Origin: Escherichia coli O157:H7
GTDB lineage: Bacteria; Pseudomonadota; Gammaproteobacteria; Enterobacterales; Enterobacteriaceae
Length of the DNA: 64,000 nt
Strand: one strand, 5' to 3'
NCBI RefSeq assembly: GCF_013167455.1
Contig: NZ_CP038328.1
The notes under the pieces are model-generated. The model made no database searches. It saw nothing but the letters and a program-made list of their open reading frames with translations, and was not told the origin of the DNA. Positions 584-23,312 of the stretch are shown in pieces. Position numbers and translations under genes: made by a program. Numbering within the stretch: the stretch's first letter is position 1; every line of letters begins with the position of its first letter.

Positions 584-2656
<2,073 letters not shown>

Positions 2657-2663
2657 CTATTAA

Positions 2664-2682
2664 TTGGCTGATCGGACTTGTT
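2664..2682 (+). promoter_or_regulatory. FadR-type operator upstream of fabB
   Basis: ttggctgatcggacttgtt resembles the FadR consensus TGGTCNGACC core; lies about 70-85 bp upstream of the fabB ATG. Confidence 0.6.
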
Positions 2683-2684
2683 CG

Positions 2685-2700
2685 GCGTACAAGTGTACGC
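2685..2700 (+). promoter_or_regulatory. FabR-type palindromic operator upstream of fabB
   Basis: Perfect inverted repeat gcgtaca-ag-tgtacgc immediately downstream of the FadR-like site. Confidence 0.6.
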
Positions 2701-2748
2701 TATTGTGCATTCGAAACTTACTCTATGTGCGACTTACAGAGGTATTGA

Positions 2749-3969
2749 ATGAAACGTGCAGTGATTACTGGCCTGGGCATTGTTTCCAGCATCGGTAATA
2801 ACCAGCAGGAAGTCCTGGCATCTCTGCGTGAAGGACGTTCAGGGATCACTTTCTCTCAGGAGCTGAAGGATTCCGGCATGCGTAGCCACGTCTGGGGCAA
2901 CGTAAAACTGGATACCACTGGCCTCATTGACCGCAAAGTTGTGCGCTTTATGAGCGACGCATCCATTTATGCATTCCTTTCTATGGAGCAGGCAATCGCA
3001 GATGCGGGCCTCTCTCCGGAAGCTTACCAGAATAATCCGCGTGTTGGCCTGATTGCAGGTTCTGGCGGCGGTTCCCCGCGTTTCCAGGTGTTCGGCGCTG
3101 ACGCAATGCGCGGCCCGCGCGGCCTGAAAGCGGTTGGCCCGTATGTGGTCACCAAAGCGATGGCATCCGGCGTTTCTGCCTGCCTCGCCACGCCGTTTAA
3201 AATTCATGGCGTTAACTACTCCATCAGCTCCGCGTGTGCGACTTCCGCACACTGTATCGGTAACGCAGTAGAGCAGATCCAACTGGGCAAACAGGACATC
3301 GTGTTTGCTGGCGGCGGCGAAGAGCTGTGCTGGGAAATGGCTTGCGAATTCGACGCAATGGGTGCGCTGTCTACTAAATACAACGACACCCCGGAAAAAG
3401 CCTCCCGTACTTACGATGCTCACCGTGACGGTTTCGTTATCGCTGGCGGCGGCGGTATGGTGGTGGTTGAAGAGCTGGAACACGCGCTGGCGCGTGGTGC
3501 TCACATCTATGCTGAAATCGTTGGCTACGGCGCAACGTCTGATGGCGCAGACATGGTTGCTCCCTCTGGCGAAGGCGCAGTACGTTGTATGCAGATGGCG
3601 ATGCATGGCGTTGATACCCCAATCGATTACCTGAACTCCCACGGCACTTCGACTCCGGTTGGCGACGTGAAAGAGCTGGCAGCTATCCGTGAAGTGTTCG
3701 GCGATAAGAGCCCGGCGATTTCTGCAACCAAAGCCATGACCGGTCACTCTCTGGGCGCTGCTGGCGTACAGGAAGCTATCTACTCTCTGCTGATGCTGGA
3801 ACACGGCTTTATCGCCCCGAGCATCAACATTGAAGAGCTGGACGAGCAGGCTGCGGGTCTGAACATCGTGACCGAAACGACCGATCGCGAACTGACCACT
3901 GTTATGTCTAACAGCTTCGGCTTCGGCGGCACCAACGCCACGCTGGTAATGCGCAAGCTGAAAGATTAA
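2749..3969 (+). CDS. fabB: 3-oxoacyl-ACP synthase I (KAS I)
   Basis: 406 aa; active-site region [14 protein letters not shown] and C-terminal [13 protein letters not shown] typical of KAS enzymes. Confidence 0.97.
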
Positions 3970-15916: not shown

Positions 15917-15926
15917 TGCCTTCGCT

Positions 15927-15949
15927 CAGGGTGCCGGTCTGGCACCCTG
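15927..15949 (+). other. GC-rich stem-loop between purF and ubiX with no U-tract (possible mRNA stabiliser or processing site)
   Basis: cagggtgcc-ggtct-ggcaccctg. Confidence 0.4.
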
Positions 15950-16010
15950 ACTTGCAACTCCCGCCGAAATCCTGCAAAGTCTGCCTGCAAGTCTGACAGG
16001 GCAACTATTT

Positions 16011-16580
16011 ATGAAACGACTTATTGTGGGCATCAGCGGTGCCAGCGGCGCGATTTATGGTGTGCGCTTATTACAGGTTCTGCGCGATGTCACAGATATC
16101 GAAACGCATCTGGTAATGAGCCAGGCGGCGCGCCAGACCTTATCCCTCGAAACGGATTTTTCCCTGCGCGAAGTGCAGGCATTAGCTGATGTCACGCATG
16201 ATGCGCGCGATATTGCCGCCAGCATCTCTTCCGGTTCTTTCCAGACACTGGGGATGGTGATTTTACCCTGTTCAATCAAAACCCTGTCCGGCATTGTCCA
16301 TAGCTATACTGATGGCTTACTGACCCGTGCGGCAGATGTGGTGCTGAAAGAGCGTCGCCCACTGGTGCTCTGCGTGCGTGAAACACCATTGCACTTAGGC
16401 CATCTGCGTTTAATGACGCAGGCAGCAGAAATCGGTGCGGTGATTATGCCTCCCGTTCCGGCGTTTTATCATCGCCCGCAATCCCTTGATGATGTGATAA
16501 ATCAGACGGTTAATCGTGTTCTTGACCAGTTTGCGATAACCCTTCCTGAAGATCTCTTTGCCCGCTGGCAGGGCGCATAA
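16011..16580 (+). CDS. ubiX: Flavin prenyltransferase UbiX
   Basis: 189 aa; flavoprotein fold with N-terminal GISGASGAIYG. Confidence 0.95.
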   Translation: MKRLIVGISGASGAIYGVRLLQVLRDVTDIETHLVMSQAARQTLSLETDFSLREVQALADVTHDARDIAASISSGSFQTLGMVILPCSIKTLSGIVHSYTDGLLTRAADVVLKERRPLVLCVRETPLHLGHLRLMTQAAEIGAVIMPPVPAFYHRPQSLDDVINQTVNRVLDQFAITLPEDLFARWQGA

Positions 16581-16588
16581 CTCCGCTG

Positions 16589-16613
16589 TTGCCCTGTTTC
16601 AGGGCAATTTTGC
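16589..16613 (+). terminator. Intrinsic terminator after ubiX
   Basis: ttgccctg-tttc-agggcaa followed by ttttg. Confidence 0.7.
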
Positions 16614-16761
16614 AACCGCGATCAAATCCTCGACATTTTGTTTCTGCCATTCAATCGAAACGCTGCGATTCAACCGCTATACCTGCTATCTTCAACTTTA
16701 GGACAATAATGCAACGTCTTATTAACATATTTAACGTTGAATGTTACTGTTGTCGTCAAGA

Positions 16762-16777
16762 TGGCATAAGACCTGCA
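16762..16777 (+). promoter_or_regulatory. Sigma-54 (-24/-12) promoter upstream of argT
   Basis: tGGcataagacctGCat fits the GG-N10-GC spacing; about 70 bp upstream of the argT ATG. Confidence 0.7.
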
Positions 16778-16845
16778 TGAACAAGCCTGCAAACACACAA
16801 CACAATACACAACATAAAAAAGCCATTTTCACTTGAGGGTTATGT

Positions 16846-17628
16846 ATGAAGAAGTCGATTCTCGCTCTGTCTTTGTTAGTCGGTATTTCCGCAGCGGCTT
16901 CCAGCTATGCGGCATTGCCGGAGACGGTACGTATCGGAACCGATACCACCTATGCACCGTTCTCGTCGAAAGATGCCAAAGGTGACTTTGTCGGCTTTGA
17001 TATCGATCTCGGTAACGAGATGTGCAAACGGATGCAGGTGAAATGTACCTGGGTTGCCAGTGACTTTGACGCGCTGATCCCCTCACTGAAAGCGAAAAAA
17101 ATCGACGCCATTATTTCGTCGCTTTCCATTACCGATAAACGTCAGCAGGAGATTGCCTTCTCCGACAAGCTGTACGCCGCAGATTCCCGTCTGATTGCCG
17201 CCAAAGGTTCGCCGATTCAGCCAACGCTGGACTCACTGAAAGGTAAACATGTTGGTGTGCTGCAGGGATCAACCCAGGAAGCTTACGCTAACGAGACCTG
17301 GCGTAGCAAAGGTGTGGATGTGGTGGCCTATGCCAACCAGGATTTGGTCTATTCCGATCTGGCTGCAGGACGTCTGGATGCTGCACTGCAGGATGAAGTT
17401 GCTGCCAGCGAAGGATTCCTCAAGCAACCTGCTGGTAAAGATTTCGCCTTTGCTGGCTCATCAGTAAAAGACAAAAAATACTTCGGTGATGGCACCGGTG
17501 TAGGGCTACGTAAAGATGATGCTGAACTGACGGCTGCCTTCAATAAGGCGCTTGGCGAGCTGCGTCAGGACGGCACCTACGACAAGATGGCGAAAAAGTA
17601 TTTTGACTTTAATGTCTACGGTGACTGA
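16846..17628 (+). CDS. argT: Lysine/arginine/ornithine-binding periplasmic protein
   Basis: 260 aa with signal peptide; close paralog of the adjacent hisJ. Confidence 0.95.
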
Positions 17629-17848
17629 TACGTCGCAGGGAAGCTGTACCTGATGGAATGATCATCATGGTGCACGCCAGGTTTGTTGCACTATCGTGGT
17701 GCATTGAAATGCATACTTAAGCATTTTTAATGAAAAATAATACGTCTAACGGGGCGGGATATTTTGCCTTGATGGTCAATTTTATGGCACGATAAGTGTA
17801 ACAAACCTGTAAATATTCCCTATAAAAAGACTGTCAGTTGAGGACATT

Positions 17849-18631
17849 ATGAAAAAACTGGTGCTATCGCTCTCTCTGGTTCTGGCCTTCTCCAGCGCAA
17901 CTGCGGCATTTGCTGCGATTCCGCAAAACATCCGCATCGGTACCGACCCGACCTATGCGCCATTTGAATCAAAAAATTCACAAGGCGAACTGGTTGGCTT
18001 CGATATCGATCTGGCAAAGGAATTATGCAAACGCATCAATACGCAATGTACGTTTGTCGAAAATCCGCTGGATGCGTTAATCCCGTCCTTAAAAGCGAAG
18101 AAGATTGACGCCATCATGTCATCGCTTTCCATTACGGAAAAACGTCAGCAAGAAATAGCCTTCACCGACAAACTGTACGCTGCCGATTCTCGTCTGGTGG
18201 TGGCGAAAAATTCTGACATTCAGCCGACAGTCGAGTCGCTGAAAGGCAAACGGGTAGGCGTATTGCAGGGCACTACCCAGGAGACGTTCGGTAATGAACA
18301 TTGGGCACCAAAAGGCATTGAAATCGTCTCGTATCAGGGGCAGGACAACATTTATTCTGACCTGACTGCCGGACGTATTGATGCCGCGTTCCAGGATGAG
18401 GTCGCTGCCAGCGAAGGTTTCCTCAAACAACCTGTCGGTAAAGATTACAAATTCGGTGGCCCGTCTGTTAAAGATGAAAAACTGTTTGGCGTAGGGACCG
18501 GCATGGGCCTGCGTAAAGAAGATAACGAACTGCGCGAGGCACTGAACAAAGCCTTTGCCGAAATGCGCGCTGACGGTACTTACGAGAAATTAGCGAAAAA
18601 GTACTTCGATTTTGATGTTTATGGTGGTTAA
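17849..18631 (+). CDS. hisJ: Histidine-binding periplasmic protein
   Basis: 260 aa, signal peptide [22 protein letters not shown]; followed by hisQMP. Confidence 0.95.
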
Positions 18632-18655
18632 TCGCCATCGGTGAAAGAAAGCCCG

Positions 18656-18679
18656 CTCCCTTCGGGTAACCGGAGGGAG
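18656..18679 (+). other. hisJ-hisQ intercistronic stem-loop
   Basis: ctcccttcgg-gtaa-ccggagggag (one G-U pair), no U-tract. Confidence 0.6.
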
Positions 18680-18720
18680 ACAAGAGGCGGTAATTCACCA
18701 CACACGACAGGACAGGCAGC

Positions 18721-19407
18721 ATGTTGTATGGGTTTTCAGGTGTTATTTTACAGGGTGCGCTCGTCACGCTGGAGCTGGCTATCAGCTCTGTAGTGCTCGC
18801 TGTAATCATCGGTTTAATTGGCGCTGGCGGTAAGCTCTCGCAAAATCGGCTTTCGGGGCTGATTTTCGAAGGGTACACCACGCTGATTCGTGGCGTGCCG
18901 GACTTAGTGTTGATGCTGCTGATTTTCTACGGTTTGCAGATTGCGCTAAACACGGTGACGGAGGCGATGGGCGTCGGGCAGATTGATATCGATCCGATGG
19001 TCGCTGGTATTATCACTCTCGGTTTTATCTACGGTGCTTATTTTACCGAAACGTTCCGTGGTGCTTTTATGGCAGTGCCGAAAGGACATATAGAGGCGGC
19101 GAGGGCGTTCGGTTTTACTCGTGGGCAAGTGTTTCGGCGGATCATGTTTCCGGCGATGATGCGTTACGCCCTGCCAGGCATTGGCAACAACTGGCAGGTG
19201 ATCCTCAAATCTACCGCACTGGTTTCGTTACTCGGCCTGGAAGATGTGGTCAAAGCCACGCAGCTGGCAGGCAAAAGTACCTGGGAACCGTTCTATTTCG
19301 CTATCGTCTGTGGCGTGATTTACCTGGTTTTCACCACCGTTTCCAATGGTGTGCTGCTGTTCCTTGAGCGCCGCTACTCTGTGGGTGTGAAGAGGGCTGA
19401 CCTGTGA
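18721..19407 (+). CDS. hisQ: Histidine ABC transporter permease HisQ
   Basis: 228 aa, multi-TM permease. Confidence 0.95.
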   Translation: MLYGFSGVILQGALVTLELAISSVVLAVIIGLIGAGGKLSQNRLSGLIFEGYTTLIRGVPDLVLMLLIFYGLQIALNTVTEAMGVGQIDIDPMVAGIITLGFIYGAYFTETFRGAFMAVPKGHIEAARAFGFTRGQVFRRIMFPAMMRYALPGIGNNWQVILKSTALVSLLGLEDVVKATQLAGKSTWEPFYFAIVCGVIYLVFTTVSNGVLLFLERRYSVGVKRADL

Positions 19408-20120
19408 TCGAAATCTTACATGAATACTGGAAACCGCTGCTGTGGACCGACGGTTATCGCTTTACTGGTGTGGCGATCACTCTGTGGCTGCTTATTTTGT
19501 CGGTAGTGATAGGCGGAGTCCTGGCGCTGTTTCTGGCGATTGGTCGTGTCTCCAGTAATAAATACATCCAGTTTCCAATCTGGTTATTTACCTATATTTT
19601 TCGCGGTACGCCGCTGTATGTTCAGTTGCTGGTGTTCTATTCCGGCATGTATACGCTGGAGATTGTTAAGGGGACCGAGTTTCTTAACGCCTTTTTCCGC
19701 AGTGGCCTGAACTGTACCGTGCTGGCGCTGACGCTTAACACCTGCGCTTACACTACCGAGATTTTTGCTGGGGCAATCCGTTCGGTGCCGCATGGGGAAA
19801 TTGAAGCCGCCAGAGCCTATGGCTTCTCGACTTTTAAAATGTATCGCTGCATTATTTTGCCTTCTGCGCTGCGTATTGCGTTACCGGCATACAGCAACGA
19901 AGTGATCCTGATGCTGCACTCTACTGCGTTGGCATTTACTGCCACGGTGCCGGATCTGCTGAAAATAGCCCGCGATATTAACGCCGCCACGTATCAACCT
20001 TTTACCGCCTTCGGCATTGCCGCGGTGCTCTATTTAATCATCTCTTATGTCCTGATCAGCCTCTTTCGCAGAGCGGAAAAACGCTGGTTGCAGCATGTGA
20101 AACCTTCTTCAACGCACTGA
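19404..20120 (+). CDS. hisM: Histidine ABC transporter permease HisM
   Basis: 238 aa; overlaps hisQ stop by 4 bp. Confidence 0.95.
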
Positions 20121-20127
20121 GAATACG

Positions 20128-20901
20128 ATGTCCGAGAATAAATTAAACGTTATCGATTTGCACAAACGCTATGGCGAACACGAAGTGCTGAAAGGGGTGT
20201 CACTGCAAGCGAATGCCGGAGATGTAATAAGCATCATCGGATCGTCGGGATCGGGGAAAAGTACCTTTCTGCGCTGCATTAACTTCCTCGAAAAACCGAG
20301 TGAAGGGTCGATCGTGGTCAATGGCCAGACGATCAATCTGGTGCGCGACAAAGACGGTCAACTCAAAGTCGCCGATAAAAATCAACTGCGCTTACTGCGC
20401 ACACGCCTGACGATGGTATTCCAGCACTTCAATCTCTGGAGCCATATGACGGTGCTGGAAAACGTCATGGAAGCGCCGATTCAGGTGTTGGGCCTGAGCA
20501 AGCAGGAAGCGCGCGAGCGGGCGGTGAAGTATCTGGCAAAAGTCGGGATAGACGAACGTGCGCAGGGGAAATACCCGGTGCACCTGTCCGGTGGTCAGCA
20601 ACAGCGTGTTTCCATAGCGCGGGCGCTGGCAATGGAACCGGAAGTTCTGTTGTTTGATGAACCGACATCGGCCCTTGACCCAGAGCTGGTGGGTGAAGTG
20701 CTGCGCATTATGCAGCAGCTGGCGGAAGAGGGAAAAACGATGGTGGTGGTGACCCACGAAATGGGCTTTGCTCGCCATGTATCTACTCACGTCATTTTCC
20801 TCCATCAGGGGAAAATAGAGGAAGAAGGCGCGCCGGAGCAGTTATTTGGCAACCCGCAAAGCCCTCGTCTGCAACAGTTCCTTAAAGGTTCGCTGAAATA
20901 A
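20128..20901 (+). CDS. hisP: Histidine ABC transporter ATP-binding protein HisP
   Basis: 257 aa; Walker [13 protein letters not shown] signature LSGGQQQRV, Walker [12 protein letters not shown]. Confidence 0.97.
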
Positions 20902-20907
20902 TTGCCT

Positions 20908-20937
20908 CTCCGGTGGCTAACGCTGCCGGAGTATTTT
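20908..20937 (+). terminator. Intrinsic terminator after hisP
   Basis: ctccgg...ccggag stem followed by tatttt. Confidence 0.65.
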
Positions 20938-21097
20938 CAAGGGGAATTTGCGAGTCAGCTTCCGCTGAAATGTAAAAGTTGCAGTCCGCTAAAAATACTT
21001 CTGAATTCGCTGTCCAAAGATAAAAACTGCCTGCTGCATTGGGTGTTAATCGTGGTTATTGTCGCGTCATCTTAAATTTGAGGGGTGACGGAACGCC

Positions 21098-21988
21098 ATG
21101 ACAATATCGACAACTTCCACGCCGCATGATGCGGTATTTAAATCTTTTTTACGCCATCCAGACACCGCGCGGGATTTTATTGATATTCATCTTCCCGCGC
21201 CGCTGCGCAAACTGTGTGATTTAACGACGCTTAAACTGGAACCAAACAGTTTTATTGATGAAGACCTGCGGCAATATTATTCCGACCTCTTGTGGTCTGT
21301 GAAAACGCAGGAGGGAGTGGGTTATCTTTATGTAGTGATAGAGCACCAAAGTAAGCCGGAAGAATTAATGGCTTTTCGCATGATGCGTTATTCCATTGCG
21401 GCAATGCAAAACCATCTTGATGTGGGCTATAAAGAGCTTCCATTGGTGATCCCGATGCTGTTTTATCATGGTTGCAGAAGTCCTTATCCTTATTCACTCT
21501 GCTGGCTTGATGAATTTGCCGAGCCTGCGATTGCCCGTAAAATATATTCATCGGCTTTTCCGTTGGTGGATATTACCGTGGTGCCGGATGACGAGATTAT
21601 GCAACATCGTAAAATGGCGCTGTTGGAGTTAATTCAGAAACATATTCGTCAGCGCGATCTGTTGGGATTAGTCGACCAAATTGTTTCGCTGCTAGTTACA
21701 GGGAACACTAATGACAGACAGCTAAAAGCCCTGTTTAATTATGTATTACAAACGGGAGATGCCCAGCGTTTCCGTGCATTTATTGGTGAGATAACAGAAC
21801 GCGCACCACAAGAAAAGGAGAAACTGATGACCATTGCTGACAGATTACGTGAAGAAGGCGCAATGCAGGGCAAACACGAAGAAGCTCTGCGTATTGCTCA
21901 GGAGATGCTGGAAAAAGGATTTGACCACGAAGTCATCCTGACGCTGACCCGACTTTCACCAGACGATCTTATCGCGCAAAGCCACTAA
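21098..21988 (+). CDS. rpnB: Recombination-promoting nuclease RpnB (Rpn/YhgA-like, transposase_31 PD-(D/E)XK family)
   Basis: 296 aa; N-terminal HDAVFKSFL typical of Rpn/YhgA-like proteins; visibly AT-rich coding sequence. Confidence 0.85.
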
Positions 21989-22035: not shown

Positions 22036-22929
22036 TCAGCGAACGACATCCGCCAGCGCCTCTTCTAAATCGTACCAGCGAAACGCAAAACCCGCTTCTT
22101 CCAGCCGTTTAGGCAGCGCGCGTTGTCCACCTAATACCAGTACTGAAGATTCGCCCATTAACAGCCGAATGGCGGTTGCGGGGACGCGCAAAATAGCCGG
22201 GCGATGCAGCGCATGACCGAGCGCATGGGCAAATTGTTCATTGCGTATCGGGTAGGGCGAAACCATATTAAATGGCCCGCGCAGCTCGTTATCCAGCAGC
22301 CAGAGAATGCCGTTGACCATATCATCGATATGAATCCAGGCCAGATACTGCCGACCGGAACCAATCGGCCCGCCCAGGCCAAGACGAAACGGCGGCAGCA
22401 TTTTACCGAGAATACCGCCATCCGGTGCCAGCACTACGCCGGTACGCAGCAGGCACACTCGCGTTTTGTCACTTTGCGCCCGACAGGCAATTTCTTCCCA
22501 GCGGGCGCAGAGTTTATGGGTAAATTTGTTATGCGGCGGTTCCTCTTCGGTAACCACCACTTCACCTAAGTCGCCATAATAGCCCGTTGCCGAGCCGGAA
22601 ATGAGTACCGACGGTGGCGTGTCGCTGGCATTAATCAAATCGACCAGTTTTTGCGTGATATTCCAGCGGCTTTGGCAGAGACGCTCTTTTTGCTCGTGAG
22701 TCCAACGTTTATCAGCAATCGGTTCTCCGGCCAGGTTGATTACCGCATCAATGCCGTTGAGGTTGCTTTGATCGGCAAGCCCTTGCCATAGTGTCACCCG
22801 AGGGCCGAGAACGGAACTGGCTTTCTGCGGGTTACGCGTCATTACCGTGATTTGATGGCCCAGCTCCAGCAAACGTGGAATCAAATGGCGACCAATTAAT
22901 CCCGTCCCTCCGGTGATCACTATGTTCAT
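22036..22929 (-). CDS. yfcH: Epimerase-family NAD-binding protein YfcH
   Basis: 297 aa; N-terminal Rossmann motif [12 protein letters not shown]. Confidence 0.92.
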
Positions 22930-22949
22930 GCAGCCTCCCGATATGGCGG

Positions 22950-23312
22950 TTAACGCTGCCAGCTTAAGGTCATGGATACCGAATCGGCGTAGCGCAGCGC
23001 GTGCAGTTTATCGATCTCCACTTCAGCATACGTCACCCAGTGATGTTCACGTGCGATATCGAGCACATCCTGAGTTAATTTTTCCAGCAAAGAGAAACGG
23101 TTATTCTCTACATGCTGAATAATGTTTTTCGTTACGGTGCGATAATTCAGCGCATCGTTGATATCTTCGCTAGTGCGCGCTTTATCGGCGGGGTAGTGGA
23201 TCGTCACATTGATAACAATATCCTGACGGTTGTTAATTTCTTCTTCCTTAATTCCGATAAATGTACGTAAACGAAGGTTCTTTATACGAATAATAGCGGC
23301 AGGTTGTGCCAT
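22950..23312 (-). CDS. folX: Dihydroneopterin triphosphate 2'-epimerase
   Basis: 120 aa; FolB/FolX fold size, start [21 protein letters not shown]. Confidence 0.93.

Follow-up and report, generated by a model that had tools for sequence, protein, structure and literature searches.

Location and fold of a hairpin between hisJ and hisQ

The window, a stretch of 64,000 nucleotides, is Escherichia coli DNA: of 5426 complete E. coli genomes, 5425 have a match to its 231-nt hisJ-hisQ junction, with at least 99% identity in 5342 of them. The genes ubiX, argT, hisJ, hisQ, hisM, and hisP follow in this order on the plus strand, and the spacer between hisJ and hisQ holds the hairpin whose parts and surroundings are collected in Table 1. 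The K-12 RefSeq annotation gives no feature in this spacer; it has no REP features across the whole 45 kb, so its silence on REPs is uninformative. An Rfam scan of positions 16500 to 21200 with a cutoff of E ≤ 10 returned nothing relevant, the one match elsewhere being at chance level (E = 8.2). A GTG open reading frame at 18641 to 18793, called mechanically, was rejected; its sequence is not kept in Enterobacter-type spacers.

Table 1. Features of the hisJ-hisQ region, in window positions
Feature	Position	Strand	Basis or remark
argT	16846-17628	+	
hisJ CDS, periplasmic histidine-binding protein, stabilized upstream gene	17849-18631	+	ORF; E. coli and K-12 annotation; Dar & Sorek S3 Table; stop codon ends at 18631
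hisJ-hisQ intercistronic spacer, 89 nt	18632-18720	+	identical to K-12 MG1655; once per genome in 5425/5426 complete E. coli genomes
Predicted outer 6-bp helix GGUGAA/UUCACC, 5' half	18640-18645	+	MFE prediction only; lineage-specific
Lower helix, 5' half: GCC and C18654; extends the hairpin across an internal loop	18651-18654	+	MFE fold
Inner 10-bp stem with GUAA loop; 3' protective (exonuclease-blocking) hairpin	18656-18679	+	fold; Dar & Sorek S6 Table; compensatory changes in orthologues
Lower helix, 3' half: G18684 and GGC 18686-18688	18684-18688	+	MFE fold; orthologue comparison
In vivo RNA 3' end (Term-seq)	18685	+	6 nt 3' of the stem; PMC5927463 S6 Table, exact string match
Predicted outer helix, 3' half UUCACC; adjoins the CA-rich GcvB site	18694-18699	+	MFE prediction only
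CA-rich stretch and weak hisQ Shine-Dalgarno region; predicted GcvB R1 seed pairing site	18696-18720	+	duplex prediction
hisQ CDS, permease subunit; opens the less stable hisQMP segment	18721-19407	+	ORF; annotation; Dar & Sorek S3 Table; ATG at 18721
Canonical intrinsic terminator, 10-bp stem with 7 GC pairs, then TATTTTCAAG	20908-20931	+	7 nt past the hisP stop

As RNA, the hairpin reads CUCCCUUCGG-GUAA-CCGGAGGGAG. Positions 18656 to 18665 (CTCCCTTCGG) pair with positions 18670 to 18679 (CCGGAGGGAG) around a GTAA loop (18666 to 18669), which gives 10 contiguous pairs, nine Watson-Crick and one U.G. The stem is separated from the hisJ stop codon by 24 nt, so that it begins at the 25th nucleotide, and it ends 41 nt ahead of the hisQ ATG. 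Its free energy is about -19 to -20 kcal/mol (-19.9 kcal/mol for 18650 to 18685, z = -3.67), and none of 200 dinucleotide shuffles of that segment folded as well. The whole spacer folds with -33.2 kcal/mol (z = -3.34). The first-pass annotation had described a 10-bp stem without a U-tract, 25 nt past hisJ, and the sequence, the folding, and a terminator scan bear this out.

We counted the plus-strand hairpins with at least 10 pairs and a ΔG of -18.5 or lower and found eight in the window versus 1.0 ± 0.9 in 40 Markov-1 simulations of 64 kb. From the simulated counts follows a chance expectation of about 0.001 to 0.002 such hairpins in an 89-nt spacer, roughly one in a thousand. The hairpin after hisJ is far stronger than chance allows and is a real, non-random structure. 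The bases 3' of the stem are ACAAGAGGCGG, with no U-tract among them. The terminator scan of the plus strand found no site at the hisJ hairpin, while the same scan detected the terminator after hisP, which provides an internal contrast to the hairpin without a U-tract.

Two further helices extend the MFE fold. The pairs of the lower helix are G-C, C-G, and C-G in Escherichia and Citrobacter and G-C, U-A, and G-C in the Enterobacter group, with pair counts of UA 27, CG 7, and UG 2 at one position and GC 28 and CG 8 at another. The outer helix has weak support from the orthologue folds, since outer helices differ or are lacking elsewhere in the family.

The strongest hairpin of the window lies elsewhere, at 56307 to 56342. 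It is a perfect 16-bp palindrome, GTTCGACCAGTCAGCA-TATT-TGCTGACTGGTCGAAT, with -28.6 kcal/mol, located 16 nt past the stop of a 407-aa open reading frame on the minus strand (56358 to 57581), and could serve as a terminator or as a palindrome that a protein binds. The purF-ubiX spacer has, at 15926 to 15950 and 10 nt past the purF stop, a 10-bp hairpin without a U-tract, TCAGGGTGCC-GGTCT-GGCACCCTGA, with -19.5 kcal/mol. The "primary" Term-seq 3' end assigned to purF at MG1655 2428685(-) (Adams et al. 2021) corresponds to about position 15952 of the window, just past this stem. The purF-ubiX hairpin resembles the hisJ hairpin and may likewise act as a decay barrier or 3'-end former.

Conservation of the stem and its natural variants

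We retrieved 80 Enterobacteriaceae hisQ loci and defined the spacer as the sequence from the hisJ stop to the hisQ ATG. The 81 spacers, 77 of them distinct, span Escherichia, Citrobacter, Salmonella, Enterobacter, Klebsiella, Kluyvera, and other genera. A strong hairpin was found in all 81, the best single stem-loop ranging from -17.4 to -51.3 kcal/mol, and the median for the compact inner hairpin is -18.6 kcal/mol. The stem sequences are unrelated between lineages. Escherichia has CUCCCUUCGG / CCGGAGGGAG; Enterobacter, Lelliottia, Kosakonia, Leclercia, and Phytobacter have CCCCUCCC / GGGAGGGG; Klebsiella and Raoultella have CCAUCGCGCGC / GCGCGCGAUGG; and further stem types occur in Kluyvera, Pluralibacter, Pseudocitrobacter, Atlantibacter, and Superficieibacter. 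The loop varies freely, with GUAA, GUAU, and GCUA in E. coli strains and a hexaloop in E. albertii. The tail past the stem is typically A-rich, AAAAGACA, and none of the 77 distinct spacers has four or more U in the 8 nt past the stem, the maximum being three.

Paired positions were then compared within groups. For Klebsiella, Raoultella, and Kluyvera, 98.1% of the cells were paired, versus 29 to 51% with slid partners, and 6 of the 11 pairs were changed on both sides. For Escherichia and Enterobacter, the corresponding values were 93.2% versus 37 to 56%, with 6 of the 14 pairs changed on both sides, two of them in the lower helix (GCC/GGC in Escherichia versus GUG/CAC in Enterobacter); this group was aligned to a covariance model, so the alignment leans towards the model structure. 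Much of the covariation separates a few clades, with few independent events. A MAFFT alignment put the Escherichia stem one column off, and the covariance-model alignment was used for the pair counts. A first model search was excluded from the counting; in it, REP-bearing spacers matched via their flanks only, and there were weak matches to the hisP terminator. The pair counts support selection on structure. The conserved feature is a strong stem, placed at much the same distance past the stop, which fits a decay barrier, and the pattern as a whole fits a generic exonuclease barrier rather than a terminator or a sequence-specific binding site. This comparative evidence is what the present analysis adds to the published record of the hairpin.

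In the Escherichia-Citrobacter-Enterobacter type (18656 to 18679 of the window; loci L027-L077), the stem arms resemble ribosome-binding signals, CCCUCC being anti-Shine-Dalgarno-like and GGAGGG Shine-Dalgarno-like. It is curious to find such a motif sequestered so near a stop codon. These arms are probably inheritance rather than function, since Klebsiella and Kluyvera do without them.

REP motifs, which we take to be of the GCCKGATG ... TTATCMGGCCTAC type, have no match in the E. coli spacer versus one to four matches in the spacers of Salmonella and Citrobacter. The E. coli hairpin is also single-copy: a 61-nt query (blastn distant mode, E ≤ 1) hit 5426 places in 5425 genomes, with a median of one place per genome. 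Membership in the REP or BIME (REPIN) families was rejected for these reasons, the motifs being absent and the element not being dispersed in many copies. Salmonella and most Citrobacter have an inverted REP pair instead of the hairpin, together with extra flanking sequence, and their spacers measure 168 to 190 nt. The pair is bordered by the conserved flanks that elsewhere border the hairpin, GATAAAGCCC ... AAAGAGGC. In Salmonella typhimurium, the REP pair of the hisJ-hisQ spacer was reportedly the subject of work by Stern, Prossnitz & Ames in 1988 (Mol Microbiol 2:141). A few Citrobacter (loci L010, L012, L013, and L024) have kept the ancestral-type hairpin. Because the CCCUCC-type stem is common to many genera, the distribution is most simply read with the unique hairpin as the older state and the REP pair as a later replacement that would do the same job. 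The exchange of one for the other between the same flanks argues that any strong stem would suffice.

A split spacer was seen in a single strain among the 5426 complete genomes, E. coli TUM14697 (NZ_CP128888.1; locus L084). Here an IS4-family element, ISEc13, lies inside the loop of the hisJ hairpin (1411 to 3059), with a duplication of TCGGGTAAC(C), and the two arms are about 1.5 kb apart. The strain is a natural knock-out of the hairpin.

One might take the hairpin for a functionless structure, either left over from a decayed REP or another mobile palindrome or a palindrome that arose by chance. The orthologous slot does hold genuine REP pairs in Salmonella and most Citrobacter, and the strain with the IS element in the loop is viable. 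Against this, the single copy and the missing REP motifs do not suit a remnant, the CCCUCC-type hairpin is most likely older than the REP insertions in view of the many genera that share it, compensatory changes maintain the structure, the chance expectation per spacer is the very low one given above, and the hairpin coincides with an RNA 3' end mapped in vivo. We therefore regard a functionless hairpin as extremely improbable.

RNA 3' end and decay of the hisJQMP transcript

The hairpin is already on record. In a study that charted mRNA decay and RNA 3' ends across the E. coli genome (Dar & Sorek 2018, PLoS Genet 14:e1007354; PMC5927463), the histidine ABC transporter is named among the systems in which the substrate-binding subunit's mRNA is selectively stabilized, and the model offered is an endonucleolytic cut downstream, after which a 3' structure halts 3'-5' exonucleases. 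In the S3 Table of that study the stabilized gene is hisJ. The half-life ratio of hisJ to hisQ is 3.72, which is given without a standard deviation and compares with 1.39 in the independent Moffitt 2016 data, and the steady-state mRNA ratio is 5.83 ± 2.81. The S6 Table entry "hisJ hisQ upstream 2419431" reports a Term-seq 3' end with the identical hairpin sequence and fold at -19.9 kcal/mol; its upstream 60 nt finish in ...GCTCCCTTCGGGTAACCGGAGGGAGACAAGA and are folded as exactly the hisJ hairpin stem. By exact match, this end at BW25113 position 2419431 is MG1655 position 2425952 on the minus strand. In the table for Salmonella SL1344, the hisJ/hisQ ratio is 4.77 ± 0.47 and the 3' end lies past the second REP hairpin of the spacer (PMC5927463).

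The first-pass annotation had proposed that the hairpin protects the hisJ mRNA from 3' decay and thereby sets the ratio of binding protein to permease, a reading that uniform coverage and the lack of a 3' end at the hairpin would have spoken against. The published values favor the proposal: hisJ has the longer half-life, its steady-state level exceeds that of hisQ, and the mapped end lies 6 nt past the stem. The hairpin is thus a known element, catalogued with measurements in 2018 (PMC5927463), and it is of a textbook type, an intraoperon decay barrier that raises the binding-protein mRNA over the permease mRNA. The present result adds little beyond confirmation.

Other data sets gave no entry for the junction. 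Adams et al. 2021, in their curated Term-seq list, give no 3' end for the hisJ-hisQ spacer, which says little because the argT and hisP terminators are equally missing there. Neither hisJ nor hisQ was found in the SMRT-Cappable-seq supplements (PMC6131387), and in supplementary file four of Dar & Sorek, presumed to be the E. aerogenes table, hisJ is missing. Elsewhere in the window, the minus-strand pair folX-yfcH (about 22036 to 23312) is listed in the differential-decay tables of Dar & Sorek with folX stabilized, a half-life ratio of 2.15, a steady-state ratio of 2.72, and a weak 3' structure of -10.6 kcal/mol.

The hairpin is very probably a 3' protective hairpin within the (argT-)hisJQMP transcript, from which a stable hisJ mRNA emerges that outlasts and outnumbers the hisQMP mRNA. 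Because the hairpin is without a U-tract, RNA polymerase would pass through it. An endonuclease would cut the long mRNA somewhere downstream, in the spacer or in the poorly translated hisQMP, and the 3'-to-5' exonucleases PNPase and RNase II would trim back until the GC-rich stem halts them a few nucleotides short of it. What remains would be a stable hisJ mRNA, monocistronic and with its end about 6 nt past the stem, several-fold longer-lived and more abundant than hisQMP, and it would help the binding protein to outnumber the membrane transporter by far. Type I ABC importers have their binding proteins in 10- to 200-fold excess over the transporters (PMC12094219). We infer the order of these events, the identity of the acting nucleases, and the hairpin as their cause; a causal role of the E. 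coli hairpin is supported by correlation and by analogy with malE-malF and the Salmonella REPs, and a literature search for a mutational study of the E. coli hisJ hairpin found none.

The same 3' end could in principle arise from a partial stop of transcription at the hairpin or in the spacer, intrinsic or by Rho, in which case 18685 would mark a termination product and fewer transcripts would reach hisQMP. The steady-state ratio of 5.8 is indeed larger than the half-life ratio of 3.7 (1.4 in the Moffitt data), and because of this excess another process, such as some termination or Rho-dependent polarity, may contribute. The C-rich, G-poor stretch past the hairpin (CACCACACACGACA) would resemble a Rho loading site, the ribosome-binding region of hisQ is weak, Rho-dependent regions lie inside argT and hisP of the same operon (Adams et al. 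2021), and BIME-associated transcription attenuation has been described (Espeli et al. 2001). However, tails are A-rich and a U-tract is absent in E. coli and in all 77 distinct orthologous spacers, Adams et al. 2021 list no Rho region for the spacer or hisQ, and Dar & Sorek, who left out gene pairs with an intrinsic terminator or known substantial Rho termination between them, measured a real difference in half-life (PMC5927463). A partial stop as the main explanation is accordingly unlikely.

The GcvB site and comparison with known systems

Downstream of the hairpin, the spacer carries a site for the small RNA GcvB. GcvB represses hisQ via its R1 region, as verified by a reporter assay with a hisJ-hisQ intraoperonic fusion (Miyakoshi et al.; PMC9299463). 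When we scanned 20-nt windows against R1, the best duplexes fell at 18696 to 18721, with -17 to -19.7 kcal/mol. Unconstrained RNAduplex predictions between the spacer and full-length GcvB gave whole-length duplexes no better than shuffles. The sequence GACAGGRCAGGC ahead of the hisQ ATG is kept in nearly all 81 spacers. In the 5' untranslated region of argT (about 16780 to 16812), a very abundant "orphan" 3' end at MG1655 2427825(-) (Adams et al. 2021) corresponds to about position 16812 of the window, 34 nt upstream of the argT ATG and right past a CA-rich ACACACAACACAATACACAACATAAAAAAG that resembles a GcvB target site. This end could reflect premature 3'-end formation or a small RNA made from the argT leader.

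With the GcvB site so close, the main job of the structure might be sought in hisQ translation, controlled through the extended fold together with a GGAGG on the 3' arm that resembles an SD, with hisJ protection as a by-product. The predicted outer helix abuts or overlaps the R1 site with its UUCACC, the spacer mediates the repression of hisQ by GcvB (PMC9299463), and the CCCUCC and GGAGGG arms of the Escherichia-Enterobacter stem resemble anti-SD and SD sequences. Yet the inner stem stops 41 nt short of the ATG, clear of the hisQ SD, and the outer helix is not kept across lineages. The hairpins of Klebsiella, Kluyvera, Pluralibacter, and the REP-bearing species have no SD-like sequence, and the feature that is conserved is the strong stem at its roughly fixed distance past the stop. 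Control of hisQ as the main job is, on this balance, very unlikely.

Next to protecting hisJ from ordinary decay, the hairpin may also shield hisJ when an sRNA triggers the decay of hisQMP. A hairpin adjoining a verified GcvB site suggests an sRNA route to altered subunit ratios within one operon. A wider proposal, which we put forward only tentatively and consider rather doubtful, is that the spacer is a conserved module of two parts, an exonuclease-proof stem slot and a GcvB seed site. GcvB would silence and degrade hisQMP while the hairpin insulates hisJ, and the ratio would be under active regulation instead of being fixed. An ancestral unique hairpin would occupy the slot in most Enterobacteriaceae, and in Salmonella and most Citrobacter a mobile REP pair would have taken its place. 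If this were true, the REP takeover would be a clean natural case of a selfish repeat retained as a substitute for a functional hairpin.

The hisJ hairpin shares with intrinsic terminators a GC-rich stem-loop past a stop codon and an RNA 3' end nearby. It differs from them in its tail, ACAAGAGG, which is A-rich and without a U-tract, and in having the 3' end 6 nt past the stem, whereas the hisP terminator has its U-tract. An intrinsic terminator was rejected, as no U-tract is present in E. coli or any orthologous spacer.

The hairpin belongs instead with the 3' protective hairpins that reshape operon stoichiometry, a class represented by malE-malF and the elements of Dar & Sorek. A stable stem lies 3' of the stabilized gene and is not an intrinsic terminator, having no U-tract; the in vivo 3' end at 18685 is a few nucleotides past it; the published half-life and level of the upstream gene exceed those of the downstream gene; and structure rather than sequence is conserved, in 81 of 81 spacers. 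The hisJ/hisQ entry of Dar & Sorek is the same element, present there in the supplementary tables only and not studied individually. [quoted passage not shown]

For the malE-malF REP hairpins, the role was shown by deletion (Newbury et al. 1987, summarized in PMC5927463). Like them, the hisJ hairpin follows the binding-protein gene of an ABC importer operon and lies in the operon's first intercistronic spacer, and by analogy its stem would stop 3'-5' exonucleases past a downstream cut and let the binding-protein mRNA accumulate. Unlike malE-malF, which consists of REP repeats, it is unique, single-copy, and without REP motifs.

The REP pair of Salmonella typhimurium (Higgins et al. 1982) occupies the orthologous position; an RNA 3' end was mapped past the REP hairpin, and the hisJ mRNA exceeds the hisQ mRNA 4.8-fold (PMC5927463). 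These spacer REPs are reported to affect mRNA stability, for which Stern, Prossnitz & Ames 1988 is cited. The slot is kept family-wide with interchangeable stems, REP pairs included, which supports the view that any sufficiently stable stem suffices, and these stems form a natural series in which to follow the effect of stem strength on operon stoichiometry. In Salmonella the element is an insertion of 110 nt made up of two inverted REPs (BIME/REPIN) from a genome-wide repeat family, while the E. coli element is a unique hairpin of 24 nt, apparently the older state in view of its presence in Enterobacter, Kosakonia, Lelliottia, and others.
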